Source: an uncultured Planctomycetia bacterium
GTDB taxonomy: Bacteria; Omnitrophota; Gorgyraeia; Tantalellales; Tantalellaceae
Assembly (NCBI GenBank): GCA_964572255.1
Contig: CAZNEE010000001.1
Coordinates: 2,223-66,222 of the forward strand
Length of the DNA: 64,000 nt
Reading direction: 5' to 3'
Below are positions 1 through 64,000 of the stretch, one piece after another. Both the position numbers and the translations under genes were made by a program. Position 1 is the stretch's first letter. Each line of letters starts with the position of its first letter. Under the pieces are notes generated by a model that saw only the letters and a list, made by a program, of their open reading frames with translations, did not search any database and was not told the DNA's origin.

Positions 1-2313
1 ATGGCCCTGGCTATCCGTGATCTTTTAATAGACAAATGGATAGTGACCCAGCAGCGGTATCATGATGAGAATTCCAAGAGAGTATATTATCTTTCACTCG
101 AATTCCTTCTCGGGAGGCTTCTCAGCAATAACATATTGAATCTCGGATTGAATGATGAAAGCAAAAAAGCCATGGAGGAGCTGGGGCTTAACCTGAAAGA
201 TCTTTCAGAACGCGAGATCGATGCCGGTTTGGGAAATGGGGGCCTTGGAAGACTTGCGGCATGTTTTCTTGATTCCATGGCAAGTTTAGGCATTCCGGCG
301 ACCGGTTACGGCATACGATATGATTACGGCATCTTTAACCAGAAGATCATCAACGGTTATCAGGTGGAACTGCCCGAGGAGTGGCTGGCATTAGGCAATC
401 CATGGGAATTTGAAAGACCTGAATATACTCTAAAGATAAAGTTTTACGGTAAGACCGTTCAAAGCACAGGCAGGGACGGTAAGTTTCATGTGGATTGGGT
501 GGATACAAGTAATGTTCTTGCTGTTGCTTATGATATACCTGTCCCCGGCTATAATAACGATGTTGTGAACAATTTGAGGCTTTGGTCAGCAAGAGGTACG
601 AAGGAATTTGACCTGGAATATTTTCATGACGGTGATTATATAAAAGCTTGTGAAAATAAGATAGTCTCTGAGAACATTTCACGCGTTCTTTATCCGAGTG
701 ATAACGTGTATAAAGGTCTTGAACTACGGTTAAAACAGGAATATTTTTTCACTTCCGCATCGATCCAGGATATTATCCGCAGGTTTAAGATGCATAACGA
801 TGATTTCATGGCTTTCCCGGATAAAGTGGCGATCCAGCTTAACGATACACATCCGGCGATCGCCATTGTTGAACTTTTGCGTTTACTTCTGGATGAAGAG
901 GGGCTCGACTGGGATACCGCTTGGGATATTACTGTAAGAACGTTTGCTTATACGAATCATACTATAATGTCTGAAGCCCTTGAAAGCTGGCCGGCAGCAC
1001 TCTTCAAAAAACTCCTTCCCAGGCACATGGAACTGATATACGAGATAAATATGAGGTTCTTGCGGGAAGTCGCCAATCGTTATCCGTGGGATCATTGGAG
1101 GTTAGGTCGTATGTCTCTTATGGAAGAATGGCCGGAAAAAAGGGTAAGGATGAGCCATCTTTGTATTGTCGGGAGCCACTCTGTAAACGGTGTTTCACAT
1201 CTCCATACGGAACTGCTAAAAACCACGCTTTTTAAGGATTTTTATGACTTTTATCCCTGGAAGTTCAATTCCAAAACTAACGGTATAACGCAAAGAAGGT
1301 GGCTAAGAAAAGCGAATTCTCCGCTTTCGAGTCTTGTTACCGAAACGATCGGTGATGGATGGATAGGGGATCTTGGCCAGATCAAAAAGATCTCTTCATA
1401 TGCCGATGACGGCGCGTTCAGAAAAAAATGGAATGATATAAAAAATGAGAACAAAAAAAGATTGGCAAAATATATAGAAGATAAAAATAAGGTCATCATT
1501 AATCCTGATTCTTTGTTCGATGTCCAGGTCAAGCGTATACATGAATATAAACGCCAGACGCTTTTCGCTTTTTATCTGATCTCACAATATTTGAGGATAA
1601 AGAACAACCCCAACGAGGACATCCTGCCCAGAACCGCGATAATAGCCGGAAAAGCCGCGCCTGGTTATAAAATGGCAAAACTTATCATAAAGTTCATAAA
1701 TAGCATAAGCGAAGTCATTAACAGGGATCCTGATGTTAAGGATAAACTTAAAGTGGTCTTCCTGGAGAATTATTGCGTTTCTCTGGCGGAGAGAATATTT
1801 CCGGCAAGTGAACTTTCCGAACAGATCTCGACCGCCGGGAAAGAGGCTTCCGGTACGGGAAACATGAAATTTATGCTCAACGGTGCAGTTACTATCGGCA
1901 CATGGGATGGAGCGAACATAGAGATCGCTCAGGAAGTGGGGGATGACAATATCTTCATTTTCGGGTTAAAGGCGGACCAGGTGCAGGAATTAAGAAGCAA
2001 AGGATACAATCCTAAAAAATATTTAAAGCAGGATCCATTATTAAAAGAAGTTTATCAGCTTGTGAAAGAGGATTTTTTCTCGCCCTTTGAGACCGGGATA
2101 TTTAAAAATCTATTGGAGTCGCTTATTGGCTATGACGAATACATGATCTTTGCGGATTTTGATGACTATGTAAAAACCCAGGAGAAAGTATTCGAGGCCT
2201 ATAGAGATCGGGACAGGTGGACAAAGATGTCGATCATGAATGTTGCAAATTCAGGGAGATTTTCAAGTGACAGAACGATCCGGGAATATGCCAAAGAGAT
2301 ATGGGGGATCTAA
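1..2313 (+). CDS. glgP: Glycogen/alpha-glucan phosphorylase (5' end truncated by window edge)
   Basis: ORF runs from window start; pyridoxal-phosphate site signature 'EASGTGNMKFMLNGA' and overall phosphorylase family match. Confidence 0.9.
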   Translation: MALAIRDLLIDKWIVTQQRYHDENSKRVYYLSLEFLLGRLLSNNILNLGLNDESKKAMEELGLNLKDLSEREIDAGLGNGGLGRLAACFLDSMASLGIPATGYGIRYDYGIFNQKIINGYQVELPEEWLALGNPWEFERPEYTLKIKFYGKTVQSTGRDGKFHVDWVDTSNVLAVAYDIPVPGYNNDVVNNLRLWSARGTKEFDLEYFHDGDYIKACENKIVSENISRVLYPSDNVYKGLELRLKQEYFFTSASIQDIIRRFKMHNDDFMAFPDKVAIQLNDTHPAIAIVELLRLLLDEEGLDWDTAWDITVRTFAYTNHTIMSEALESWPAALFKKLLPRHMELIYEINMRFLREVANRYPWDHWRLGRMSLMEEWPEKRVRMSHLCIVGSHSVNGVSHLHTELLKTTLFKDFYDFYPWKFNSKTNGITQRRWLRKANSPLSSLVTETIGDGWIGDLGQIKKISSYADDGAFRKKWNDIKNENKKRLAKYIEDKNKVIINPDSLFDVQVKRIHEYKRQTLFAFYLISQYLRIKNNPNEDILPRTAIIAGKAAPGYKMAKLIIKFINSISEVINRDPDVKDKLKVVFLENYCVSLAERIFPASELSEQISTAGKEASGTGNMKFMLNGAVTIGTWDGANIEIAQEVGDDNIFIFGLKADQVQELRSKGYNPKKYLKQDPLLKEVYQLVKEDFFSPFETGIFKNLLESLIGYDEYMIFADFDDYVKTQEKVFEAYRDRDRWTKMSIMNVANSGRFSSDRTIREYAKEIWGI

Positions 2314-2759
2314 TGGAAAGATCCAGAGGCATAACAATATACGGGTCACTGATAATCGCGTTAGGCATTTTTAACCTTTTAAGTATAGGCGGATATAAAC
2401 AGTTCGCTTTAATGTTTCATGGTCTTCCAAATCTAATAATTATAGGCATTTACGTATTTACCATACTTTATGGGATAGCATGTGTTTATTGCGGATCCGC
2501 TATACTAAAGCTTGAAGATTGGGGAAGAAAAGTAGTAGTTGCTTTAACGACAATAAGCGTGATAATGGGTTTACTTTTGAACAGGCTGGCAATGTCCAAT
2601 TTAAAGGATTTTGTTTTCTCGGACGGTTCGCAGGTACCGCCTGACATCGCGGGATCGGTGTACAATTTCAGTATTATCCTTACAGCCATAGTTACCTTAT
2701 TTGAGATATCGATCATATTTTTCCTTACAAGACCTTCCGTAAAAGCCCAGTTTAAGTAA
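2301..2759 (+). CDS. Hypothetical small polytopic membrane protein
   Basis: 152 aa ORF with several hydrophobic helices; no recognisable motif; start may be ATG at 2313. Confidence 0.4.
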   Translation: MGDLMERSRGITIYGSLIIALGIFNLLSIGGYKQFALMFHGLPNLIIIGIYVFTILYGIACVYCGSAILKLEDWGRKVVVALTTISVIMGLLLNRLAMSNLKDFVFSDGSQVPPDIAGSVYNFSIILTAIVTLFEISIIFFLTRPSVKAQFK

Positions 2760-2840
2760 TAGTATATTGGGAATTTTTAAACACTTCTGAGTATGTAGGG
2801 TGTTCCTAAATGGCACGTCCCTAAAAAAACTTAAAAAAAT

Positions 2841-2868
2841 TTGACTTATATGAAAAATGTGATATACT
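2841..2868 (+). promoter_or_regulatory. Sigma70-like promoter TTGACT-N16-TATACT driving the leader RNA below
   Basis: TTGACT at 2841-2846, 16 nt spacer, TATACT at 2863-2868; same hexamers and spacing recur at the paralogous module on the minus strand (55590..55563). Confidence 0.45.
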
Positions 2869-2914
2869 TTTAAACGTTAGTAAAGTTAGTAGTTTTTACT
2901 AAAGTTTTTGAAAC

Positions 2915-3060
2915 AATAGTAAACCATTCGCAAGGATGGGGCACAAAGCCAGAGGGGCCGAAACAGGCTAAGTGGAGGCCAGCCAGCTGCCGATATAGCT
3001 AATCGTTAAAGCGCATGGCAGAGTGTTTTGTGAACCCAACCTTCAATGGTTGGGTTTTTT
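2915..3060 (+). promoter_or_regulatory. Structured 5' leader RNA; candidate c-di-GMP-I (GEMM-like) riboswitch aptamer plus intrinsic terminator expression platform
   Basis: 'AAACCAUUCGCAAGGAUGGGGCACAAAGCC' closely matches my recollection of the Vibrio cholerae Vc2 GEMM P-hairpin/junction ('AAACCAUUCGAAAGAGUGGGACGCAAAGCC'); GNRA hairpin CCAUUC-GCAA-GGAUGG; paralogous copy at 55373..55512(-) with compensatory changes; ends in hairpin AACCCAACC-ttcaa-TGGTTGGGT + U6 (3033-3060). Confidence 0.55.
3033..3060 (+). terminator. Intrinsic terminator (riboswitch expression platform)
   Basis: 9-bp GC-containing stem (ACCCAACC/GGTTGGGT) with 5-nt loop followed by TTTTTT. Confidence 0.6.
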
Positions 3061-3160
3061 ATTGATGAAAGGAGGGGATTCAAAAAGTAAAGAACGATGG
3101 AATTGTAATGCAATTATATGCAAATAGTGAAAAATCTAAAAAGAAAGAGAGGTGAGTAAG

Positions 3161-3595
3161 ATGAAGAAAATTATGATATTAAGCGCTATATTGTTTTGTG
3201 TTTGTATCGTTGGCGTTAATCCCAGTTATGCGGGTTTAGATGTGTCAGAAACTTCACCCGGCACCTATACCTGGTTTTACACCGGGGTACCTCATGCTAA
3301 TGATTACCATATAAGAAGCGACGGGCTTTACGGCCCTACTCCTTCAGGTTGGTCACCTGACCCATCAGATGCTGATGGAGACCCCACTACAGACGATTGG
3401 TACTGGAGTGATCCAGGGGATTTTGATTTGAATGGGATGGGGGGAACTATTTCATATGCATCTTATACGCCATACATAAGAATCACACAAAATGGCGAGA
3501 CTATAGCTGAAAACCCTGAACCGGCAACCATGGCAATATTTGGTCTTGGCGGATTGGGTTTGGCGGTAAGAAGAAAATTTTTGCGTAAGGCGTGA
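3161..3595 (+). CDS. PEP-CTERM sorting-signal secreted protein
   Basis: N-terminal signal peptide; C-terminus '...PEPATMAIFGLGGLGLAVRRKF' = PEP motif + TM helix + basic tail; RBS AGAGAGG before ATG 3161 (ORF track starts at GTG 3152). Confidence 0.75.
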   Translation: MKKIMILSAILFCVCIVGVNPSYAGLDVSETSPGTYTWFYTGVPHANDYHIRSDGLYGPTPSGWSPDPSDADGDPTTDDWYWSDPGDFDLNGMGGTISYASYTPYIRITQNGETIAENPEPATMAIFGLGGLGLAVRRKFLRKA

Positions 3596-3654
3596 AAAGG
3601 AATAATACATAACAGCATACAGTAAAAGAACTGAAAGGGGCACACGAAATATTT

Positions 3655-3692
3655 GAACCGGGTTCTATCACTTTGTGATCTGAACCCGGTTC
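3655..3692 (+). other. Perfect 11-bp inverted repeat stem-loop (GAACCGGGTTC...GAACCCGGTTC) downstream of PEP-CTERM gene
   Basis: Seen directly; no immediate U-tract, so terminator function uncertain. Confidence 0.3.
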
Positions 3693-6423: not shown

Positions 6424-7042
6424 GACCGTAAAAGCGATATTATTAGATCTGGGAAATGTTATTATCAAGCTGAATCCTTCGGCATTAGAGGAAGGATACT
6501 CTCATTATGGCGATGCAGGCGGCGGCAGGATGACCGAGTTCATAATGAAGGAAGACTCGGAAATATTAAGCGGATATATGGAGGGCAAACTTACATCTTC
6601 GCAATTTTACAAGAAAGTAAGCCGCCTTTTCAATATGGATATTTCATTTGATGATTTTTATCGTGTATGGAATGGCATGTTCCTGCCGTACCCAGAGATG
6701 GAAAACCTCATAAGACTTACCAGGGAAAAATATCCTGAGGTAAAACTTATTCTCGTTTCCAACACTAATGAAGCGCATTATGATTTTATAAGGCAAAATT
6801 ATAAGATCCTTGATCTTTTAGACGAATGTGTCGTTTCGCATGAGTTTGGGAAGCAGAAACCTGATAACTCTATTTACAATGAAGCCTTGCGGATATCGGG
6901 AACATTGCCGAAAGAGACGTTTTACACCGATGACCGGCTTGATCTCATCGACGCCGCCAGGGCCATGGGGATACGCGCTTTTCAGTTTACCGGCCATGAG
7001 GAATTTCAGGAAAAGCTAGAAAAATTCGGGTTAATATTGTGA
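6416..7042 (+). CDS. HAD-superfamily hydrolase (subfamily IA-like)
   Basis: N-terminal '[10 protein letters not shown]' (motif I-like), 'LVSNTN' motif II-like; overlaps nudix stop by 8 nt. Confidence 0.55.
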
Positions 7043-7049
7043 GGTATAA

Positions 7050-7946
7050 TTGAGAAGATCCGGATTTATTGCCATATCAGGCCAGCCGAATGTCGGCAAA
7101 TCAACTATGCTGAACGGCTTTTTAAAAGAAAAGCTTGCGATAATCAGCGAACGCCCCGAAACTACCCGTGACAATATACGGGGGATCCTTACCGATAAAG
7201 AATGCCAGATAATTTTTGTTGATACCCCGGGGATACATAAACCTCACGATCTATTAGGCAAACTCATGCTCTCGCGCGCTCAGTCCTCACTGATGGAATC
7301 AGATATAGTGATCTTTGTGACCGAAAAGAGACTTGCTTTAAACGAAAATGACAGAAATATCATAGAACGCCTCCCGAGACCGGAGGAGGATAAAAAAGTC
7401 ATTCTTGTGATCAATAAAGTTGATAAGGTAAAAGATAAAAAGTTATTACTCCCCATTATCGAAGAGGCGGGTAAACTTTATCCATTTAATGAGATAATAC
7501 CGATCTGTGCTTTGGATCAGTCCGATATCGAAAAACTTCTGATAATAATAAAATCTTACCTTCCCGAAGGGCCTTTATTTTACCCGGAAGAGCAGCTTAC
7601 GGATAAAAGCGAACACTTTATAATCCAGGAACTTATACGCGAGAAGACGCTGGTATTTACATATGAGGAAGTGCCTCATTCAGTAGCTGTTGTTGTGGAT
7701 AATATCGAGCGGGATGAAGATAAAGGCGGTTTGAATATCCAGGCCACGATTTATGTTGAACGCACCTCGCAAAAGTCCATTATTATCGGGAAAAAAGGCG
7801 AAATGATCAAAAGAATCGGAAAAGAAGCCAGAAGTGATATAGAAAAATTTCTGGGGGAACATATTTATTTGGACCTTTGGGTCAAGGTAAAAAAGAAGTG
7901 GAAAAAGGATCCCGGCGCCCTTGAGGAACTGGGATATACTGATTAA
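7050..7946 (+). CDS. era: GTPase Era
   Basis: G1 'GQPNVGKST', G3 'DTPGIH', G4 'NKVDK', C-terminal KH domain 'IIGKKGEMIKRIG'; TTG start. Confidence 0.9.
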   Translation: MRRSGFIAISGQPNVGKSTMLNGFLKEKLAIISERPETTRDNIRGILTDKECQIIFVDTPGIHKPHDLLGKLMLSRAQSSLMESDIVIFVTEKRLALNENDRNIIERLPRPEEDKKVILVINKVDKVKDKKLLLPIIEEAGKLYPFNEIIPICALDQSDIEKLLIIIKSYLPEGPLFYPEEQLTDKSEHFIIQELIREKTLVFTYEEVPHSVAVVVDNIERDEDKGGLNIQATIYVERTSQKSIIIGKKGEMIKRIGKEARSDIEKFLGEHIYLDLWVKVKKKWKKDPGALEELGYTD

Positions 7947-7990
7947 TAAGTTAAGATAGCGCTAAAAGCTGTGCTGACTTTGCATTTATA

Positions 7991-8064
7991 AGAGTGTAAT
8001 ATGTTTCCGTACAGGGAGGATCCACACTGGGCGGAGGGGCCCTGGTAGGAAATATATTACACTC
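7991..8064 (-). repeat. Copy A of dispersed GC-rich palindromic intergenic repeat (inverted orientation relative to copies B/C)
   Basis: Core CCAGGGCCCCTCCGCCC(A/G)GTGTGGATCCTCCCTG near-identical to 39646..39722 and 42855..42934; flanked by imperfect terminal inverted repeats; embedded in a longer palindrome 7971..8089. Confidence 0.7.
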
Positions 8065-27344: not shown

Positions 27345-27432
27345 GCCGGAGTGGTGAAATTGGCAGACGCGCTGGACTCAAAATCCAGTGGGGTATCCCC
27401 CCGTGTGGGTTCGACTCCCACCTCCGGCACCA
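27345..27432 (+). tRNA. tRNA-Leu (anticodon CAA), class II with long variable arm, CCA encoded
   Basis: Acceptor GCCGGAG/CTCCGGC, anticodon loop CU-CAA-AA, long extra arm, T-loop GGTTCGACTCC. Confidence 0.85.
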
Positions 27433-27439
27433 CTTGAGT

Positions 27440-27515
27440 GGGGCTGTAGCTCAGCTGGAAGAGCGCGTGCATGGCATGCATGAGGTCAGGGGTTCGATCC
27501 CCCTCAGCTCCACCA
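27440..27515 (+). tRNA. tRNA-Ala (anticodon GGC), CCA encoded
   Basis: G3:U70 identity pair in acceptor stem, anticodon loop AU-GGC-AU, T-loop GGTTCGATCCC; followed by T-run. Confidence 0.85.
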
Positions 27516-54415: not shown

Positions 54416-54535
54416 TTTTTCCTCCTTTTCAGTTTACGATTTGTTATGCATGATTTATTGCGGATCATGCACCCATGCATATATAGACAAGTTTTCGGAG
54501 AAAAAACTTTCATTTAGAACAAAAATAATGCGAAA

Positions 54536-54579
54536 CAAAAAGACCCTGACCACTTTTTCTAGTGATCAGGGCCTTTTTT
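54536..54579. terminator. Bidirectional intrinsic terminator downstream of minus-strand PEP-CTERM gene
   Basis: GACCCTGACCACT / AGTGATCAGGGCC imperfect stem flanked by A5 (left) and T6 (right). Confidence 0.45.
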
Positions 54580-54627
54580 ATGACCAAAATGAATATAAGC
54601 TTGTAAAGCTACTTCTAATTATTTTAT

Positions 54628-55323
54628 TTATTTTCTAAATCTTTTTATTGCAAACCCCAGTCCTGCTAACAGGAACGAGAACATAGTTGCGGGTTCGGGA
54701 ACAGGATCGGGATCTTCTGGCGGTGATTCCTGTTCAGCAGTTATAAGTTGTACCATATCACCGCTATCCATACCGGCGTCATATGTATTGTCATCTGGAT
54801 CAAAAGGATTATTTGCGTATTCAAAAAGAATTAGATCGGCATCGATGCCCCCCGGGGTTATGAGTGTCGCTGAACCGCCCGGAATGGATTCTGCCGGATT
54901 GGCCGGAGGCCAGGAAGGCGTGCCAAAGAAAACCCTATGGATTATATCGGGATCCATATCGTAATATAATATTTCCGTTGCATAAAAACTATAGGGAGTA
55001 CCCCAGACAGCCGGCCAAAAGGTCCAGACTGGTCCGCTTAATCCATCATCAGAACCAAGGCGCCAAGACCCGAAAGATCCCACAGAAGGATCCCACATTG
55101 GCGTAACAGAAACCTGTGCGCCATTATCCCAATCCCAATAAATATCCCCAGATTGGAGTGGGGCATTTATAGTAGTGTTTGCCGGAAGATCCCAGACATC
55201 AAATGGGGGTTCGGTGGTCTCTATTGCTACGTCACTGGTTATCGGCGCCGCCCCGGCGCTTTGCGCCATAAACAAAAGACCAGCCGCAATTACCGCAATT
55301 GCTATTAAACTTAAATTCTTCAC
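54628..55323 (-). CDS. PEP-CTERM sorting-signal secreted protein
   Basis: Signal peptide 'MKNLSLIAIAVIAAGLLFMAQSAGA'; C-terminus 'VPEPATMFSFLLAGLGFAIKRFRK'. Confidence 0.75.
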   Translation of the reverse strand: MKNLSLIAIAVIAAGLLFMAQSAGAAPITSDVAIETTEPPFDVWDLPANTTINAPLQSGDIYWDWDNGAQVSVTPMWDPSVGSFGSWRLGSDDGLSGPVWTFWPAVWGTPYSFYATEILYYDMDPDIIHRVFFGTPSWPPANPAESIPGGSATLITPGGIDADLILFEYANNPFDPDDNTYDAGMDSGDMVQLITAEQESPPEDPDPVPEPATMFSFLLAGLGFAIKRFRK

Positions 55324-55372
55324 TTTGGTCCTCCTTCTTGTTACTTTTTAAACTTCACATCTTTACTAAAAC

Positions 55373-55512
55373 AAAAAAACCCAACCATTGAAAGGTTGGG
55401 TCACAAAGATCCTCTTACACTTTTTACGATAGTGCAAATCGGCAACCGGCTGGGTCTCGCTTAATCTGCTAAACCCCCTGTGGTTTTGTGCCCCATTCTT
55501 GCAAATGGTTTA
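55373..55512 (-). promoter_or_regulatory. Paralogous structured leader RNA (candidate c-di-GMP-I/GEMM-like riboswitch + terminator), copy 2
   Basis: Reverse complement reads AAACCAUUUGCAAGAAUGGGGCACAAAACC...GCCGAU...ACCCAACCUUUCAAUGGUUGGGUUUUU; collinear with 2915..3060. Confidence 0.55.
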
Positions 55513-55562
55513 CTATTAGTATTGGTAAAAAGAGCATAATTGCTTACTTTACTATCTCTTAA

Positions 55563-55590
55563 AGTATACCACATGTTTTCCGAAAGTCAA
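55563..55590 (-). promoter_or_regulatory. Sigma70-like promoter TTGACT-N16-TATACT (minus strand) driving leader copy 2
   Basis: Reverse complement of 55585-55590 = TTGACT, of 55563-55568 = TATACT; overlaps 3' end of anti-sigma gene. Confidence 0.4.
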
Positions 55591-56018
55591 TTTTTTTTAG
55601 TAAGTTTTTTCGATTCGAAGTGGGAGAGGAGTCGGTTGGTTTTATCTTGGTCGCCGCTTTTCCAGGCCTCATGGATCATTACGAGCATCTTTGTTGTTCT
55701 TGCCTCGATTATCCATTTAGCGCCCATCAATAAGCACGCGACGAGGAATTGAAGAAAATATTTTGAAAAAATAAAAGAGCAGGCAAAAGTGATGATTGTT
55801 CCCAGGAGCCAGCGATTCTTTCTGATCCACCGAAAAATGCTTTCTTTCAGCTCAAAAATATCAGGTTGGCTTAATATCTCATGGGTCTCTGCCAGGAGCT
55901 TCCGGCATTTGTCGCATGAGGCAAGATGCTGTTCCACGCTTCTTTTTAGTCCATCTTCAAGCAGACCGTTCATATATTCGCTCAGGATTTCTTCTGTAGG
56001 GCATATGCGGCTGTTCAT
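55587..56018 (-). CDS. Anti-sigma factor with N-terminal zf-HC2 zinc finger and C-terminal TM anchor
   Basis: 'EQHLASCDKCRKLLAETHE' HxxxCxxC motif; immediately downstream of ECF sigma gene. Confidence 0.6.
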   Translation of the reverse strand: MNSRICPTEEILSEYMNGLLEDGLKRSVEQHLASCDKCRKLLAETHEILSQPDIFELKESIFRWIRKNRWLLGTIITFACSFIFSKYFLQFLVACLLMGAKWIIEARTTKMLVMIHEAWKSGDQDKTNRLLSHFESKKLTKKN

Positions 56019-56884: not shown

Positions 56885-56993
56885 ATATATATTCAAATAA
56901 AAGAATAAAAAGCAAGAAAAGCACTAAGTTATATGTGCTTTTAATTTTTGCAAAGAAAATTAAGAAATTTTAAAGTAAGATGGGGTTGGGAAA

Positions 56994-59900
56994 ATGATAA
57001 ACGCTTGGCAAAAAGACAATTCGTCCATAGTAAGCAAAAAGACACTAATAAGGGTCGTGGCGCTTATTACATTAGTGGCTTTTGTGCTTACTATGGATGG
57101 GGGTATTCTTACCGACATTGCGCACGCCTCGAACCTACCTTCAAATTCCGCGAATAGCTTCAACGCCCGATTGATCAAGTTGCCGGAATACCTTGGCCAC
57201 ATAAAAGAATCCCATAATACTTTTTCAGAAAGAATAGTTATTCACATTCAGGATGCCCACTGTAATTATGCCGCCCAAAAGAAAATTGCCGATATAATCC
57301 GATATCTCAATGATACATACGCGATAGACACCGCCAACCTGGAAGGAGGAAAAGGCAATTATGATCTTTCACCTTTTTCCGGTATTTCCGATAAGGCTGT
57401 TCGCGAAAAAATATCTGATCATTTTGTTAAGGAAGGGCTTATAAACGGAGCGGAGTATTTTGCCATAAATAGTCCAAATCAAGTAAAGCTGTGGGGGATA
57501 GAAGATGAAGGGCTTTATGTAAGAAATCTTAATGTATATCGGGATGCTATTAAGCATAAAAAAGAGGCTGATAAATATATAAATGAACTCGGGCAGGCAT
57601 TAACTGGCCTTAAACGCCATATTTATTCAGAGGAACTTTTAAAGCTGGATGGGGTCTATTCCGAGTTTAAAGAGCAGGAAATAGAGTTAAGGGATTATCT
57701 CGCATATCTATTCAATAAAGCTGATGAAAGATCCATCGATATCAAGGCATTCCCGAATTTGTACCTGTTAAATCAGGCGATCAGGGAAGAAAGAAAGATA
57801 GATTTTGAAAAGGCCGATAAAGAAAGGACCCGTCTTATAAATAGATTGGAGAACAAGCTCTCCAGATACGATATTGAGGAACTCCTCTTAAAAATGGTCG
57901 AATTTAAAGAAGAGAGGATAACACAGGATAGTTTTTACAGATACCTTGCAAGAAAAGCAAGGCTGGCCAATATCAGCCTGGAGGGATCTCCCGAACTCAG
58001 GAAATATATCATATATGTATCCATATATAATTCTTTGGATGAAATTACACTATATGAAGAGATAGAAGCCCTTGAGGGAAAGATCCAACAGTCTTTGTGT
58101 GAGAACGAGACCCAACTTGAGCTATATGAACTTTCAAGGAACTTTGCTTTAACGAAAAACATTCTGGATTTTTCAATAACAAGCAACGATTACAGGTATT
58201 ACAAGGATAATCAAAAGCTTTTTAAGGTCAAAAATTATATATCATTTATAGGAAAATACTCACCGCGATATAAAATTACCGCAAAAGTTGATAATAATTT
58301 ACGGGATCTTGATCGTTATCGTGATGAAGCCATAAAGTTCTATGAATATTCATTCGAAAGGGACAAGGCATTTATAAAAAATCTTAAATGGTCGCAAGCA
58401 AAAGACCAGGGCCGGCAAATCACTATCCTTATAACAGGCGGTTTCCACTCGGAGAACCTTACCGGTCTTTTAAAAGAGAAAGGGATCTCTTTCATCTCGA
58501 TAGCGCCGAACTTTAAATGCGAGGAGGGGTACGAATCGCCTTACTTTGATCTTTTAAGCGGCGGCAAAGGCTCTCTGGTAAAGCTTATCGAGACAAGCAC
58601 TTCGGGCCTTGCGATGCATAGTTTGCTTTCAGAGATGGAAGTTATCGATATAGATAAGGAAGGCATTAAGCGGGCCATAGAAGTCCTTGAAGCATTAGAA
58701 AAAGAAGGGAGCATCACTCTTCCCGCCAGGTACGGATCTGTTACATTTTCACGCGAAGCCATAAGCGACCTCTCAGAGGAAAAGAAAAGGATGAACGGAT
58801 ACACGGTCTATGTGACCAGGGAAGATATCCAAAGAGAGGGTTCATCTGAAGGCAAAGAAGATAAACGGGCATTACAGGCAATTGAAAAAGATCACATTGC
58901 AAAAAGAATTATAAACCGCACCTTTGGTAATGCCAGGGCTGTTTCTGGATTGTTCCACCCGTTAAGCTTGATTTTACTGCTTACTGCACCAAGTCTTTTT
59001 GTGACAAAAATTGCTTTCTGGATTCTTATAAGCGCCACGTCACTATTTATAACAAAAGAGATATTACATTATTTCGGATTATTGGATAGAGATAAAACAA
59101 AGTCTCCCGCCTGGTTTGATAAACTTTCATTTGATTTTGCGAAAAAAGGCATGGTTCTCGGGATGGTCTTTTTGGGGTTTATGGCTTTTTATTTTATTGT
59201 ATCTCCCGGCTCTATTATCCCGAATTATATGACCTGGTCGAACTTGATCTCGGGTAGAAATCCGATATGGGATATTATTTTTACTGGAGGAGTATTTGGT
59301 CTTTTCATTTTACCGCTTCAATTATTTGTATCCGGGATGAGTGAGGGCATAAGTGGTTTATTTAAGGAAGCCATTACAGATCGTCTCCCTTTCAGGGAGA
59401 AAAAAAGATCTTCCTGGCACAGCGAAGAGGAAGCTGCGTATTTATTGATTTGTTATGCACCGATCCTTGAAGAATCGGCACGATTTATTAATATATGGGC
59501 GTATTTATATGGAGCTTTATATGTTTTAGGGTTAAGTACACAGTCATCCATTTTATTCGCGATTGTGGCGTCATCTCTTCATTTTTGGGCAACTCATTGC
59601 TCTCATAAAAGTCTCGCGACTTTACTTGAAGGGGTATTTTTAGGCGTTTTGACGGTTTTTATCAATAACCCTATTGTTAATTATGCCAGCCATTTTTGGC
59701 ATAACGTTTTTTATGGTGGAGCTTCATCTGCACTTTCAAGAGATGGCGAAGAACAGGGAAAACCAAAGTCATCTCCCGATGAAACCAGCGTTGAAGTTGA
59801 AAAGGTTCAGGATCCGACAGCGGATATGATCGAAGCCATAATCGAGCTCCATAAGGCGAATGATCAGATGGAACGCATATCCGAAGAGGAACTCACGCAG

Positions 59901-62900
59901 CACCTTAAGAACCCTGAAAGTATTATTTTCATCGCAAAAGATGCAAAAACAGAAAAAGTCGTAGGATGTTTCTTTGGTGTGCCTCAGATATATGTCCCGG
60001 GGACCGTATATTTAGAAAGGCCTGATACAGTCAGGATCAAGAACCAGACGTTTTATGAAGTGTCAGGACAGGTGCTTCCGAATTACCAGGGTAAAGGGAT
60101 AGGCACTGCCTTAAGGCGGGAATTAAGGGACGAAGTTAGATATACAGGCAGATTCCAATACATCGCCTGTCATCAGTACAAGTCATTCGATGAGCTTAAG
60201 CTGATAAAAGAGCTTAAAAAATACGGCCAGGGCGATAAGTTGCACATAGCCATAAATACCAGCCCCCAATATATCGTAATAAAGCTTAACCCTGCGGATA
60301 AAGACAACAAACCTGCACCGACCTTAAAAAAGAAAATCCGTCGTTTTCTGGTCATTTTAGTGATGTTCTTTACGCTTGGCTATTATGCGCTTACCAGCGG
60401 GATATTATCTAATGTTAACGGTTCGAGGCAGGTTGTTCATATTTTAAAAGCGGCTGTCACCTGGGTTCTTCCTTCCGGTGATGAAAATCCGCAGGAGAGA
60501 GAAAATATTGATGGCAACATGATCGAGGAGTCAGAAGCTAGTGTTACCGCAGAACCTATCATTGCCCACAAAGAAGAGTATGGTATTGAAGTTGGAGAAG
60601 AAAAGGAAGCAGGCGGTAAAGATGCAGGCAAGACCGCCGGGCTTAAGAAACACACATTGAAGAAAATGTTCAAAACTGTCTTGCGCAAAAGCCTATCAGC
60701 CTTAAAATGGCTGGCCTGTGTAGTTTTGATAGGAAGCACGCCCAAAGATGAGATGCTTTTTAATCCGTCGGAAGAGACATACGATATATGGCGTGAAAAT
60801 GAAGCAGATCCTTCTCTTTTGAAGCAAAAATCTTCGGAAGTCGATGATAGGTTGACTCTTGCCCCGCTTTTACAGAAAAAAACGGCAGCAGACCTCAGGA
60901 AAGAAATCCATAAAAAATTGGTAAGAAAACGATTTCCTTCTAGAATTATTAATTGGATCTTTCCCTACGCAAAGAAACAGTTTTCAGAAAAATTATACAG
61001 ATCATTAAATAGCTTAAAAGATGCCCATGTTTATAAAATTCATCTTTTGTTGGAGTTTTTAAGTAAAGAGGAAAACGTAAGATCGATCCTGGCGGAATTA
61101 AAGCAAGCCGCAAAAGATGAAAAAGAGGCAGGAGGAGTTTTCAGGTTTACGGACGGAAAAGTAGAATTTTGCCCGTATCCGGCATCCAAATATTTGGGCA
61201 ACAAATATCACATGGTCGGAATAAAAGATTTTGATTACAAGGATCTGTTGTTCGGGTTTCATTCACATCCTCCTGCAGCTTTTGGCTGGGGGCCCAGCCA
61301 AGCCGATGTTGATATGTCTTTTATTTCAGACACATCACAAATCCTGTTTTATACCGACGGACTATCTTCCGGCCGGTTCAGTGTGATATTTTTCCAGGCA
61401 TATAACATAGATGGAGAATTTTCCGACTACATAAACATCCATTTAGGCAACTATTCATATTCAAGAAAGCCCGATTCTTTGTCAGAAGAAACGATAGCTT
61501 TTCTTGATTCTTTTCCTAGAAGAGGGAAGCCTCTCACCCCCAGTTCCAATATAGGCAATCTTGCCCGCATGGTAAGCAAAAAAGGCAGTATCGCAACCAT
61601 AGAAAATTCAGAAGGAGAATTGCACGAAGTTAAGCTGGAGTATCATGGCAAGTTGAACGTAAAACGCATTAAGAGAGAGTTTGATTTTGCAGATTATGTA
61701 TGGGGCGGAAAGAAAGAACTTCTTTTTATGTTCCTGGATCTGGTCGAACCTCTGAAACCAAGCATATATTATTTTGATGGCAGTGCAGAGAAAATCGAAG
61801 ACCTTTCGGCTTTTTCATCTTTTGAGTACGGTCTTTTAGCTTTTCATCCGAATTTGGCATCTAATTTACTTGCTCAATTGCATGAAATAGGGCATTACCT
61901 GATAGATTACAGGGAAGGCAATGCGAAGAAGGGACTGTTGGACCTTAAATATAAGAGAACGGACGAAGAGGAATTTATTATAGTCAGGGCGAGAGAGACT
62001 GTTTCAGATAAATTGAAAGTGATAAGAAAGATACATCTTTCCCCGGATACTTCATGGTATATCCAAAATGAAGATTGGCCGGAGGGGTGGGAAGAAGATC
62101 CCCATTATCTTTTAAGGGTACTTTTCAGGGAGATCTTTGATGAGGTCGATCAAGACCTGACCGAGGACATAAAGTACTTGTTACAGGCAAGAAAGATAAA
62201 CTCTGAAACCGGTAATAAAAAAGGAACTTCCGGCAAAACCACTTTACGCATGGGCGGCATGGGCATAGCAGCGCCTTTTGCGGCGCATTTGGCCGGGCTG
62301 ATCTCGCTTCCTGTGGCTTTTCAGCTCATATTCGCAATTACAATAATATCCCTTGTTTCGATGATACTCAGTCAGATGACCGCTTTTGATGATTCTAAGC
62401 TTTGTGATGTAAATGACGAGGCACGGGAAAACCGGAAAAAAGAATATATATCCAAAAAAGCCATCAATGAACTTAAAGCGAATTATGGGCTCCTGCCCAA
62501 AGAGCACAAGTTATCACAATATATCAAGGATCTCTTAAGGGAAATTTACCCCGAACTCAGTGACGAAGAACTGCCAAAAGTAGAGGTACTTGCGTCCAGA
62601 GGTTACGGTGTAAATGCCATGGTTTTCCCGAATAATACCATCGTTATTACTCCGGAACTTCTCGAGTTCGCCGAATACAAGGAAGAGCTGATCCATATCC
62701 TTTTTCATGAGATCGTGCATATGGACAGGGAACATTTTAAGCGTGACAAAAATGCCGGATCGATCCGGGAACTCCTTGGACTAATGAGATACGATGAGTA
62801 CGAGGCTGACATGGCGGCTTTTCGCATGCTCCAGGACAAGGGCTTTAATCCTCAAGGCGCCATATCCATGATGAAAAAGTTTAGAGATGCTTTCGGTAAA

Positions 62901-64000
62901 TATAGATTAGAGAGGGAGCTTAATGTCGTACACGGGGAAGAAACAGACCGTCTTCTTAACATGGAAAGCCTTACGTATCTGGAAGATTATAAGGACCTTT
63001 CATTTTCATTGACACCGCTTCCGAAAGAAGTTTGGAAAGGCGCCTCTAGAGATGGTTTTATAAGAAGCGGGAACAGAAGGGATCTTATATTGAATGATTC
63101 GTACCCGATAGAAGATCGCATGAGGTTGATATTCCAGGCAGATCAGTATCTCCTGCAGGAGATTCTGGGAGAGCTTTGCGGCAAGATAATATTAAGCGAG
63201 AGTGAGCTCCGCAAGCTCGGCAGGGACGAAGATGACATGACTTCTGCAATAGCGGTGCAATTATCGGAACAAAGGATGCTTCTTAAGAAAGCGATCGAAC
63301 GGCTAAAAGAGATATTAGAGGAGAAGACCAGCGGAGAAAATGCGAAAGTTTTAAACTTTACCATTGTGAGCTTGATCTTCGGAGTCCCTTTTGACGTTTC
63401 CCCCGAAACATTAAGAAGCGGATATTTCCGGGATATCAAGGGGGATTTCTATGAACAATTAGACAGTGACCCGGAGGCCGTAATAGAGTCGATCGAAAGA
63501 TTGCTTACAAACGGCGTGATGGAGAAATTAGATCTTGTAATAGACGGTAATACGCTCAGCAGTTTTTTAATAGGATTATCTCAAGCGGCGGCGGAAAGAG
63601 GCTTGTACGATAAAGACGAAGGCTTTGATTTTAAAATGTACCTTAAAAATTCATTCAGGCTTCTTGAGGGCGGAGCTTTTTATGCCGGAAGAGAGGGCAT
63701 GGGAGACTGTGGCTGCAGCTGCTGCGGCGGTGTATTTAATAAATCTGTAATATGGACACGCATTGTCTTTAGAGGGCTATGGGAGATCTTCGACCTGGGA
63801 CAGGTTGAAGAGGGCATATTTGAGGAGGACAATTTATTTCATTATTTTAAGGAGGTAAATGAGTATAAAGGTTCTGCACAGGTAAATCGTGAATTACTGA
63901 CATCTTTTGCCTCCTCCAGCAGGGAAGTTGATATTAAAAAAATGGATTCTGAGATCAAAAGAGTCGGGCTATTCAGGAAAGACATCGAGGAAGAAAACGA
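56994..64000 (+). CDS. Giant multidomain membrane protein (3' partial; at least 2335 codons, continues beyond window) - not in supplied ORF track
   Basis: Manual translation from ATG 56994 (in-frame TAA at 56976-56978 upstream) reaches window end with no stop; contains TM segments, TraB/Tiki/ChaN-like motifs, GNAT-like 'QGKGIGTAL', JAMM-like 'HSHP..S..D', 'HEIGH', M48-type 'HEIVH...EYEAD', Cys cluster 'GDCGCSCCGG'. Confidence 0.8.
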   Translation, partial: MINAWQKDNSSIVSKKTLIRVVALITLVAFVLTMDGGILTDIAHASNLPSNSANSFNARLIKLPEYLGHIKESHNTFSERIVIHIQDAHCNYAAQKKIADIIRYLNDTYAIDTANLEGGKGNYDLSPFSGISDKAVREKISDHFVKEGLINGAEYFAINSPNQVKLWGIEDEGLYVRNLNVYRDAIKHKKEADKYINELGQALTGLKRHIYSEELLKLDGVYSEFKEQEIELRDYLAYLFNKADERSIDIKAFPNLYLLNQAIREERKIDFEKADKERTRLINRLENKLSRYDIEELLLKMVEFKEERITQDSFYRYLARKARLANISLEGSPELRKYIIYVSIYNSLDEITLYEEIEALEGKIQQSLCENETQLELYELSRNFALTKNILDFSITSNDYRYYKDNQKLFKVKNYISFIGKYSPRYKITAKVDNNLRDLDRYRDEAIKFYEYSFERDKAFIKNLKWSQAKDQGRQITILITGGFHSENLTGLLKEKGISFISIAPNFKCEEGYESPYFDLLSGGKGSLVKLIETSTSGLAMHSLLSEMEVIDIDKEGIKRAIEVLEALEKEGSITLPARYGSVTFSREAISDLSEEKKRMNGYTVYVTREDIQREGSSEGKEDKRALQAIEKDHIAKRIINRTFGNARAVSGLFHPLSLILLLTAPSLFVTKIAFWILISATSLFITKEILHYFGLLDRDKTKSPAWFDKLSFDFAKKGMVLGMVFLGFMAFYFIVSPGSIIPNYMTWSNLISGRNPIWDIIFTGGVFGLFILPLQLFVSGMSEGISGLFKEAITDRLPFREKKRSSWHSEEEAAYLLICYAPILEESARFINIWAYLYGALYVLGLSTQSSILFAIVASSLHFWATHCSHKSLATLLEGVFLGVLTVFINNPIVNYASHFWHNVFYGGASSALSRDGEEQGKPKSSPDETSVEVEKVQDPTADMIEAIIELHKANDQMERISEEELTQHLKNPESIIFIAKDAKTEKVVGCFFGVPQIYVPGTVYLERPDTVRIKNQTFYEVSGQVLPNYQGKGIGTALRRELRDEVRYTGRFQYIACHQYKSFDELKLIKELKKYGQGDKLHIAINTSPQYIVIKLNPADKDNKPAPTLKKKIRRFLVILVMFFTLGYYALTSGILSNVNGSRQVVHILKAAVTWVLPSGDENPQERENIDGNMIEESEASVTAEPIIAHKEEYGIEVGEEKEAGGKDAGKTAGLKKHTLKKMFKTVLRKSLSALKWLACVVLIGSTPKDEMLFNPSEETYDIWRENEADPSLLKQKSSEVDDRLTLAPLLQKKTAADLRKEIHKKLVRKRFPSRIINWIFPYAKKQFSEKLYRSLNSLKDAHVYKIHLLLEFLSKEENVRSILAELKQAAKDEKEAGGVFRFTDGKVEFCPYPASKYLGNKYHMVGIKDFDYKDLLFGFHSHPPAAFGWGPSQADVDMSFISDTSQILFYTDGLSSGRFSVIFFQAYNIDGEFSDYINIHLGNYSYSRKPDSLSEETIAFLDSFPRRGKPLTPSSNIGNLARMVSKKGSIATIENSEGELHEVKLEYHGKLNVKRIKREFDFADYVWGGKKELLFMFLDLVEPLKPSIYYFDGSAEKIEDLSAFSSFEYGLLAFHPNLASNLLAQLHEIGHYLIDYREGNAKKGLLDLKYKRTDEEEFIIVRARETVSDKLKVIRKIHLSPDTSWYIQNEDWPEGWEEDPHYLLRVLFREIFDEVDQDLTEDIKYLLQARKINSETGNKKGTSGKTTLRMGGMGIAAPFAAHLAGLISLPVAFQLIFAITIISLVSMILSQMTAFDDSKLCDVNDEARENRKKEYISKKAINELKANYGLLPKEHKLSQYIKDLLREIYPELSDEELPKVEVLASRGYGVNAMVFPNNTIVITPELLEFAEYKEELIHILFHEIVHMDREHFKRDKNAGSIRELLGLMRYDEYEADMAAFRMLQDKGFNPQGAISMMKKFRDAFGKYRLERELNVVHGEETDRLLNMESLTYLEDYKDLSFSLTPLPKEVWKGASRDGFIRSGNRRDLILNDSYPIEDRMRLIFQADQYLLQEILGELCGKIILSESELRKLGRDEDDMTSAIAVQLSEQRMLLKKAIERLKEILEEKTSGENAKVLNFTIVSLIFGVPFDVSPETLRSGYFRDIKGDFYEQLDSDPEAVIESIERLLTNGVMEKLDLVIDGNTLSSFLIGLSQAAAERGLYDKDEGFDFKMYLKNSFRLLEGGAFYAGREGMGDCGCSCCGGVFNKSVIWTRIVFRGLWEIFDLGQVEEGIFEEDNLFHYFKEVNEYKGSAQVNRELLTSFASSSREVDIKKMDSEIKRVGLFRKDIEEEN

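Follow-up and report, generated by a model that had tools for sequence, protein, structure and literature searches.

A 64,000-nt stretch of DNA from an uncultured Omnitrophota bacterium (contig CAZNEE010000001.1, positions 2,223 to 66,222; hereafter, the window) was found to carry two similar leader regions, each located upstream of a gene for a PEP-CTERM protein. Copy 1 lies on the plus strand in a unit spanning positions 2841-3692. Copy 2 lies on the minus strand in region 54533-55590, which forms a self-contained monocistronic cassette running from a sigma-70-type promoter to a final terminator. The copy 2 promoter (55563-55590) consists of TTGACT (55590-55585), a 16-nt spacer and the extended -10 element TGgTATACT (55568-55563), with an A-rich tract upstream. 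It is followed by a hairpin close to the transcript 5' end (GUAAAG...CUUUUUAC; 55525-55552; -5.6 kcal/mol), an aptamer (55438-55524) and an intrinsic terminator (55368-55402) with a 9-bp stem, a 7-nt loop and a U-tract (hairpin, -12.9 kcal/mol). The gene itself (54628-55323) encodes 231 amino acids from a GTG start codon, preceded by the ribosome-binding site (RBS) GAAGGAGG at 55337-55330. A second terminator (54533-54573), composed of a 13-bp stem followed by U5, closes the cassette with a folding energy of -21.6 kcal/mol.

The copy 1 unit has the same layout on the plus strand. Its promoter (2841-2868) is made up of TTGACT, a 16-nt spacer and the extended -10 element TGaTATACT, and is followed by a 5'-end hairpin (2877-2902), an aptamer (2908-2994) and the terminator region (3026-3067), in which a stem at 3032-3057 is followed by a U-tract. 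The gene (3161-3595) encodes 144 amino acids from the ATG at 3161, and the same product is present in the annotation of the Joint Genome Institute (JGI). The order of promoter, aptamer, intrinsic terminator, RBS and open reading frame (ORF) thus holds in both copies, placing both aptamers in a 5' untranslated region (UTR). In a consensus scan, each promoter matched 10 of the 12 consensus bases in addition to the TG before the -10 element. The original prediction had described the two leaders as collinear, with the same promoter hexamers, spacing and terminators, and these points were reproduced: TTGACT-N16-TATACT occurs at 55590-55563 (minus) and 2841-2868 (plus), the -10 element lies 51 nt from AAACC in copy 2 and 52 nt from it in copy 1, and a terminator scan detected a stem with a T-tract behind it in each leader (55402-55378 and 3032-3057). 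When reverse-complemented, the segment at about 55373-55605 can be aligned with 2830-3060, so that collinearity extends from approximately 25 nt upstream of the -35 element to approximately 30 nt past the terminator, with a mean column identity of 75-76%. The 5' arm of the 5'-end hairpin, UAGUAAAGU, is also conserved between the copies, and stabilization of the mRNA is one possible role of this hairpin in copy 2.

Both leaders were assigned to a known RNA family by an Rfam scan of the whole window. Copy 1 (2908-2994, plus strand) matched RF01051, the aptamer of the GEMM-I riboswitch for cyclic di-GMP (c-di-GMP-I), with 51.1 bits (E = 4.8e-7), and copy 2 (55524-55438, minus strand) matched it with 50.2 bits (E = 7.9e-7). 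Both matches covered model positions 1-87 of 87, and the gathering threshold of the family is 35 bits. These two matches and two tRNAs were the only ones above threshold in the window. A permissive Rfam scan detected neither a third GEMM-I copy in the window nor any other family at its threshold for the leaders. RF03167 (the c-di-GMP-I-GGC variant) belongs to the same clan and has the same fold, but membership was rejected, as copy 1 reached 45.2 bits against a threshold of 59; RF03167 takes its name from a changed set of conserved nucleotides, which the window copies do not carry. Other sub-threshold matches in the window, among them U12, GibS and mir-142, were dismissed as chance. Consistent with the Rfam result, only copies 1 and 2 fitted the GEMM-I core pattern with up to two mismatches in the 64 kb, where 0.03 sites were expected. 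A scan of genomes with the core pattern returned at least 118 loci, and none of the matches listed came from the present lineage. The corresponding metagenome scan returned three loci, one of which, L121 (Ga0180437_10065373), is the copy-1 locus in another strain; its leader scored 51.7 bits against RF01051.

The two leaders share with the Vc2 and Cd1 riboswitches of RF01051 a pair of hairpins set on a junction, a GNRA loop on the first hairpin, the junction and pocket bases, and the location in a 5' UTR, while the host, an Omnitrophota bacterium, is different. The first hairpin (P2) is capped by the tetraloop GCAA in copies 1 and 2 and by GUAA in L121. The pocket bases, namely the intercalating A in CAC-A-AAG and the C in U-GC-CGAU, are kept in both copies and were aligned by Rfam with high posterior probability. 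The blocks that had been noted as constant and single-stranded (GGGGCACAAA, AGCC and UGCCGAU) correspond to the nucleotides that GEMM-I conserves in its junction and ligand pocket. Beyond position 20, which is discussed below, no conserved junction base deviates in either copy. One feature weighs against the assignment, in that attempts to draw an outer P1 helix gave no convincing result for either copy; the GGCA/UGCC pairing proposed by RNAalifold was non-native and was set aside. As judged by the covariance model, both leaders are real structured RNAs of the already known GEMM-I family of cyclic-dinucleotide riboswitches, and it is this membership that proves the structure. The GEMM-I fold is itself known, with established structure and ligands, and the novelty implied by the original prediction is absent. 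For the cassette as a whole, the reading as a promoter, a GEMM-I class riboswitch, a terminator platform, a PEP-CTERM gene and a final terminator is held with high confidence.

The ORFs downstream of both leaders encode PEP-CTERM proteins, as had been proposed. The copy 2 protein matched PF07589 with 21.1 bits and TIGR02595 with 22.4 bits, and the copy 1 protein matched them with 29.2 and 21.0 bits, respectively (cut-offs, 20.7 bits for PF07589 and 16 bits for TIGR02595). Both proteins have an N-terminal signal peptide and a C-terminal PEP motif followed by a hydrophobic helix and a basic tail; the sorting tail is encoded at 54705-54631 in copy 2 and from 3515 in copy 1. BLASTP between the two proteins aligned only the 22-residue sorting tail, in addition to a weak match of the signal peptides. 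The idea of a paralogous leader/PEP-CTERM module therefore holds for the leader and the sorting tail, which are shared, but not for the protein bodies, which are unrelated; copy 1 is a paralogue of copy 2 in its regulatory part only. With the gene of L121 (2692-3225), the riboswitch-controlled PEP-CTERM proteins encoded at 54628-55323 and 3161-3595 of the window make up a set of three apparent orphans. Searches of an index of 5.8 billion proteins with the copy 2 and L121 proteins found only the queries themselves, apart from a match to the shared tail. Attempts to trace further leaders through homologues of these cargo proteins accordingly failed. PEP-CTERM genes were also rejected as a general target of GEMM-I: in a crude survey of the first downstream ORF at the 123 aptamer loci listed, a tail-like end was found only in L121. 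With such cargo, a second messenger could tune the display of fast-evolving, exosortase-sorted surface proteins.

The two leaders had further been reported to differ in ways that preserve base pairing. The GEMM-I architecture, comprising 20 pairs, was mapped onto copy 1, copy 2 and L121, which align without gaps over 87 columns. Standard pairs occupied 59 of the 60 pair cells (98.3%), with two pairs varying on one side only and four on both sides. In a control with the 3' partner shifted by 1-3 columns, 28-43% of the cells were paired. The "hairpin 1" of the original prediction corresponds to the GNRA-capped first hairpin, named P2 in 4YAZ numbering. It reads CCAUUC/GGAUGG in copy 1 and CCAUUU/GAAUGG in copy 2 (CCAUUU-GCAA-GAAUGG with its loop), and both one-sided changes retain pairing. 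The second helix is part of P3, which extends from about 55485 to 55444 in copy 2; it reads GGCC/GGCC in copy 1 and GGGU/ACCC in copy 2 and differs by two two-sided changes. Together with the full-length RF01051 matches, this pairing bears out the claim of a functional structured RNA, although the covariation is supportive and does not amount to statistical proof because it comes from three sequences only.

The same differences could in principle have arisen if a recent segmental duplication had drifted neutrally, with compensatory changes occurring by chance in an RNA without function. The lineage offers three distinct sequences only, and a shuffle control can be exceeded by related sequences that lack structure, both of which leave room for this explanation. 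Nevertheless, the coding parts are unrelated, yet the leader is 75% identical and has an invariant core; each copy passes the curated covariance model independently; and the shifted-partner controls fall far below the pairing of the true structure. Non-homologous cargo, an invariant aptamer core and co-varying stems thus contradict a recent duplication with random drift only, and we regard this explanation as extremely improbable.

The base at position 20 (Vc2 numbering; column 11 of the model) determines the subtype. It is A in both copies, at 2918 in copy 1 and at 55514 in copy 2 (posterior '*'; A14 in Gs1761 numbering), whereas the Rfam consensus and the Vc2 and Cd1 riboswitches have G. This base is unpaired and lies immediately 5' of a two-pair GC/GC element. 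In Vc2, G20 recognizes the G-alpha of c-di-GMP and G-beta is paired with C92; riboswitches for cyclic GMP-AMP (cGAMP) have adenine in place of G20, as at A14 of Gs1761 (PMC6140456). The intercalating junction A of Vc2 is A47, and the Gs1761 counterparts of A47 and C92 are A41 and C75. The junctions of Gs1761 are J1/2 (A9-A14), J2/3 (A41) and J1/3 (G74-C75) (PMC6274999), and the copy 1 junction ACAAUA likewise has A at the positions of A9, A11 and A14 (PMC6274999, PMC5888326). The window sequence ACAAUA-GU...CAC-A-AAG...U-GC-CGAU maps one for one onto these junctions. From the 4YAZ sequence, we take the ACAAUA of copy 1 to be identical to the Gs1761 junction. The G that marks the c-di-GMP-selective subtype is thus missing from both copies, which leaves their membership of the fold family unaffected, and both have the GEMM-Ib pattern of A at position 20 with the C92 equivalent retained, as do Gs1761, Gm0970, pilM and pgcA of Geobacter.

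The frequency of this base was surveyed among aptamers that share the P1 type of the window copies, taken from a scan of species-representative genomes. Among the matches listed, position 20 was G in 114 of 120 and A in 6 of 120, in a sample conditioned on the search pattern (same P1 and core), indicating that A is a minority state and not the default. All A-variants from the genome scan still scored as RF01051. Both paralogues and L121 share the A and its AAUA context, despite the approximately 25% of leader positions at which they differ. By their sequence, both RNAs are members of the A20 (GEMM-Ib-like) subtype. In sequence, cGAMP sensing is marked by A20-type aptamers, and it has been characterized mostly in Geobacter.

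The pocket of both RNAs combines A at position 20, the intercalating A and the C92 equivalent (in GCCGA). As this is the arrangement of GEMM-Ib, both should accept 3',3'-cGAMP. By analogy with published A20 variants, both may bind c-di-GMP too, through a protonated A. That cGAMP is the physiological ligand has, on the sequence of the pocket, about an even chance of being correct; that c-di-GMP alone or both ligands act physiologically is rated a little short of even. Two observations count against cGAMP. First, A20 does not determine selectivity by itself: the affinity of Vc2 G20A is 53 nM for c-di-GMP and 120 nM for cGAMP, and some natural A20 members are bispecific (PMC6140456). Second, no GGDEF, Hypr-GGDEF or other cyclase was detected when the open frames of 150 aa or more in the 64-kb window were scanned for motifs. 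Published A20 RNAs as a group range from about 1600-fold selectivity for cGAMP to bispecificity.

The same GEMM-I riboswitch might also be an ordinary c-di-GMP sensor, in which A20 binds G-alpha via protonated adenine and cGAMP has no role. A20 RNAs bind c-di-GMP well, as the Kd of Vc2 G20A shows, and recognition through protonated adenine has been described for Vc2 G20A, Gs1761 and Cbe 1-2 (PMC6140456); moreover, c-di-GMP riboswitches are known upstream of PEP-CTERM genes (PMC12530212). The nearest sequence relatives of the window aptamers are G20 Omnitrophota aptamers (L040 and L071; 87.8% identity over 49 nt), and GGDEF-family proteins adjoin the syntenic sigma factor gene in relatives. Against this, the A and the AAUA junction have been kept in both paralogues and L121 despite the dominance of G among the matches listed, which suggests that the A has been selected and not tolerated, and the characterized A20 members of Geobacter favor cGAMP by about 1200- to 1600-fold. 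A pure c-di-GMP sensor is therefore a tentative, if substantial, possibility. The relationship to G20 Omnitrophota aptamers also distinguishes the window aptamers from GEMM-Ib of Geobacter and suggests that A20 probably arose independently in the two lineages.

A new riboswitch class, or a variant with altered specificity for another nucleotide signal, was considered as well. Altered-pocket variants of the same fold do exist in the same clan (RF03167, or GGC, and a UAU variant), and A20 members sat unrecognized within GEMM-I for years. However, the A/A/C pocket triplet coincides exactly with the one described for GEMM-Ib, and the conserved junction bases show no further deviation, making a new class highly unlikely.

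The expression platform was analyzed from the alternative pairings of the leader. Approximately 38 nt separate the aptamer from the terminator, with no overlap between the two. Together with upstream bases, the terminator 5' strand forms a strand T (UUUUGUGAACCCAACCUU in copy 1, 3026-3043; CUUUGUGACCCAACCUU in copy 2, 55392-55408) that is complementary to AAG(G/A)AUGGGGCACAAA, a segment made up of the end of the tetraloop, the 3' strand of P2 and the junction core. This segment, strand A, corresponds in copy 2 to AAGAAUGGGGCACAAAA at 55484-55500. Strand T thus has two alternative partners, strand A as an antiterminator and AAUGGUUGGGU (strand H) as the terminator. The energy of the A:T duplex was -16.8 kcal/mol in copy 1, -13.5 kcal/mol in copy 2 and -16.6 kcal/mol in L121, compared with about -14.2 kcal/mol for the terminator (T:H) duplex and -6 or -4 kcal/mol for the P2 hairpin alone. 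In all three sequences, A:T pairing was the minimum-energy fold of transcripts ending before the 3' strand of the terminator. Among 66 GEMM-I loci with terminators, strand T was a better pairing partner for the P2 3' strand of the same locus than for the P2 3' strands of the remaining loci (Wilcoxon p = 0.003). In many Omnitrophota and Planctomycetes leaders the terminator visibly mimics P2, for example CCCAUUCUUC...GAAGAAUGGG beside the P2 CCAUUC...GAAUGG.

These pairings suggest a mechanism for the switch. Without ligand, the terminator 5' strand together with UUUGUG would invade the aptamer and pair with AAG(G/A)AUGGGGCACAAA; the terminator could then not form, and the gene would be transcribed. 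With ligand, the aptamer would be locked, the terminator 5' strand would pair with AAUGGUUGGGU, and transcription would stop before the ORF. On this folding model, which has moderate support, the ligand would promote termination, and the leaders are probably kinetically controlled OFF switches. They would follow the logic of C. difficile Cd1, an OFF switch in which aptamer and terminator form separate domains, and the same separation in the window fits OFF polarity. The proposed antiterminator differs from those of Vc2 and Cd1 in using the P2 3' strand and the core and not the 3' end of the aptamer.

Several results run counter to the OFF model. The minimum-energy folds of the full-length leaders always contained the aptamer P2 and the terminator, so regulation would have to be kinetic. 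In comparison with shuffled sequences, the A:T complementarity reached p of about 0.01 in copy 1 and about 0.1 in copy 2. The own-versus-other P2 test did not discriminate for the two window copies, where it is uninformative because their strand T pairs mainly with the invariant core. Moreover, the GEMM-Ib switches characterized in Geobacter are of the ON type, with terminators that overlap the aptamer.

The riboswitch could accordingly have ON polarity, like pilM and pgcA of Geobacter, with the A:T complementarity being incidental. Every characterized GEMM-Ib riboswitch acts as an ON switch, the A:T complementarity of copy 2 is only marginally significant, and a conserved CGAU...AUCG mini-hairpin after the aptamer hints at a relay. 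The position of the terminator in the window speaks against this polarity, as the lack of overlap means that both terminator strands stay available when the aptamer is folded and ligand-bound. No alternative pairings were found other than A:T and that of the P2 5' strand with H, and these require an unfolded aptamer. ON polarity is thus rated as rather unlikely, and the predicted OFF direction would set the window copies apart from the ON switches of Geobacter.

Additional small elements were observed around the platform. A motif resembling the 5' hairpin arm, AUCGU(U)AAA(A)AG, is located directly after the aptamer at 3002-3012 and 55430-55419. The CGAU...AUCG mini-hairpin, which has 4 bp and also lies directly after the aptamer, has a different loop in copy 1, copy 2 and L121. 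The hairpin with the UAGUAAAGU arm, this motif and the mini-hairpin may be parts of the switch.

The genomic context of copy 2 was compared with that of related Omnitrophota (L123, L124, L125 and L126), in which the gene order is sigma, anti-sigma, SpoVG, YraN and YifB. The closest named homologues of YifB, with 76% identity, are all from metagenome-assembled genomes (MAGs) of Candidatus Omnitrophota, which places the host in that phylum; exact look-ups of YifB and of a 152-aa upstream ORF returned no recorded product. In L123 to L126 the gap between the anti-sigma gene and spoVG is 28-32 nt and has no GEMM-I match, whereas in the window it is 1171 nt (55587 to 54415) and is occupied by the copy 2 cassette. 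This difference indicates that copy 2 is a lineage-specific insertion.

The copy 1 site was compared with L121. The flanking genes (window 420-2750) showed 2 differences and were 99.9% identical, the segment with promoter, riboswitch and terminator (about 2750-3075) was roughly 90% identical with about 30 differences, and the ORF body (3076-3514) was unrelated. From the first codon of the PEP-CTERM tail (3515), the sequences were 98% identical again. Some P3 bases of L121 agree with copy 2 and not with copy 1. The simplest reading would be that the whole cassette at this site has been replaced by a third paralogue and that the leader and the tail, both conserved, provided the homology arms. 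Insertion at one site and replacement of a whole cassette at another, between strains with 99.9% identical flanks, suggest fast turnover of the regulated surface-protein genes. It is also conceivable, albeit doubtful, that these are cGAMP-selective OFF riboswitches that arose independently of Geobacter and head mobile cassettes, the leader and the tail serving as recombination handles by which orphan surface-protein bodies are swapped. If true, this would constitute a surface-variation system under second-messenger control.

The association of riboswitch and PEP-CTERM gene is not new, as Methylophaga nitratireducenticrescens GP59 has been reported to carry c-di-GMP riboswitches ahead of PEP-CTERM and VPLPA-CTERM genes, likewise with several such units in its genome (PMC12530212). 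That host is a gammaproteobacterium, and its units lie within 18 kb beside exopolysaccharide genes (PMC12530212), whereas the units of the window are 52 kb apart among housekeeping genes. The window riboswitches resemble Geobacter GEMM-Ib in that they also control genes for extracellular or surface proteins. GEMM-I is among the commonest riboswitch classes, and with the PEP-CTERM link already reported, the two leaders are ordinary as riboswitches. What remains of interest is the occurrence of A20 in Omnitrophota, the predicted OFF platform with its mimicry of P2, and the turnover of the cassettes. Copies with a fixed A20 offer a handle on whether cGAMP-RNA signaling exists in this uncultivated phylum. 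The terminator platform that mimics P2 seems to be recurrent in the GEMM-I leaders of Omnitrophota and Planctomycetes and predicts OFF polarity.

Other GEMM-I loci from the scans showed further arrangements. In a Bacillota MAG (L004, JAEYRH010000005.1, 6872-7155), two nearly identical GEMM-I aptamers stand in tandem 199 nt apart, one with G and the other with A at position 20; this pair may be a two-input arrangement for c-di-GMP and cGAMP. At six Omnitrophota and Planctomycetes loci (L008, L038, L048, L061, L062 and L105), G20 aptamers with a P2 of the window type are located upstream of proteins of approximately 130 aa that share the terminal motif ...GTSGTTT[YF]TITTGGVL... At another six (L015, L024, L041, L052, L068 and L087), the aptamers precede proteins ending in ...SGE[AT]GG..K..EL. 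Both sets look like recurrent regulons.

Among the neighboring features, a sub-threshold Rfam match to tmRNA at 27440-27515 was rejected, as it corresponds to a tRNA-Ala gene; adjacent tRNA-Leu(CAA) and tRNA-Ala(GGC) genes are located at 27345-27515 on the plus strand. In L125, a response-regulator/GGDEF-family (Rec-GGDDF) protein (6859-8061, minus strand) with the canonical Asp, and not the Ser of Hypr enzymes, adjoins the syntenic sigma gene. The counterpart position in the window is occupied by a giant ORF (56979-63998, plus strand; more than 2340 aa), which runs off the end of the window and is divergent from the extracytoplasmic function (ECF) sigma gene. On a sibling contig, the JGI product for this frame has 2506 aa, and the sole Pfam match is confined to residues 1848-1920, a short piece of Peptidase_M48.

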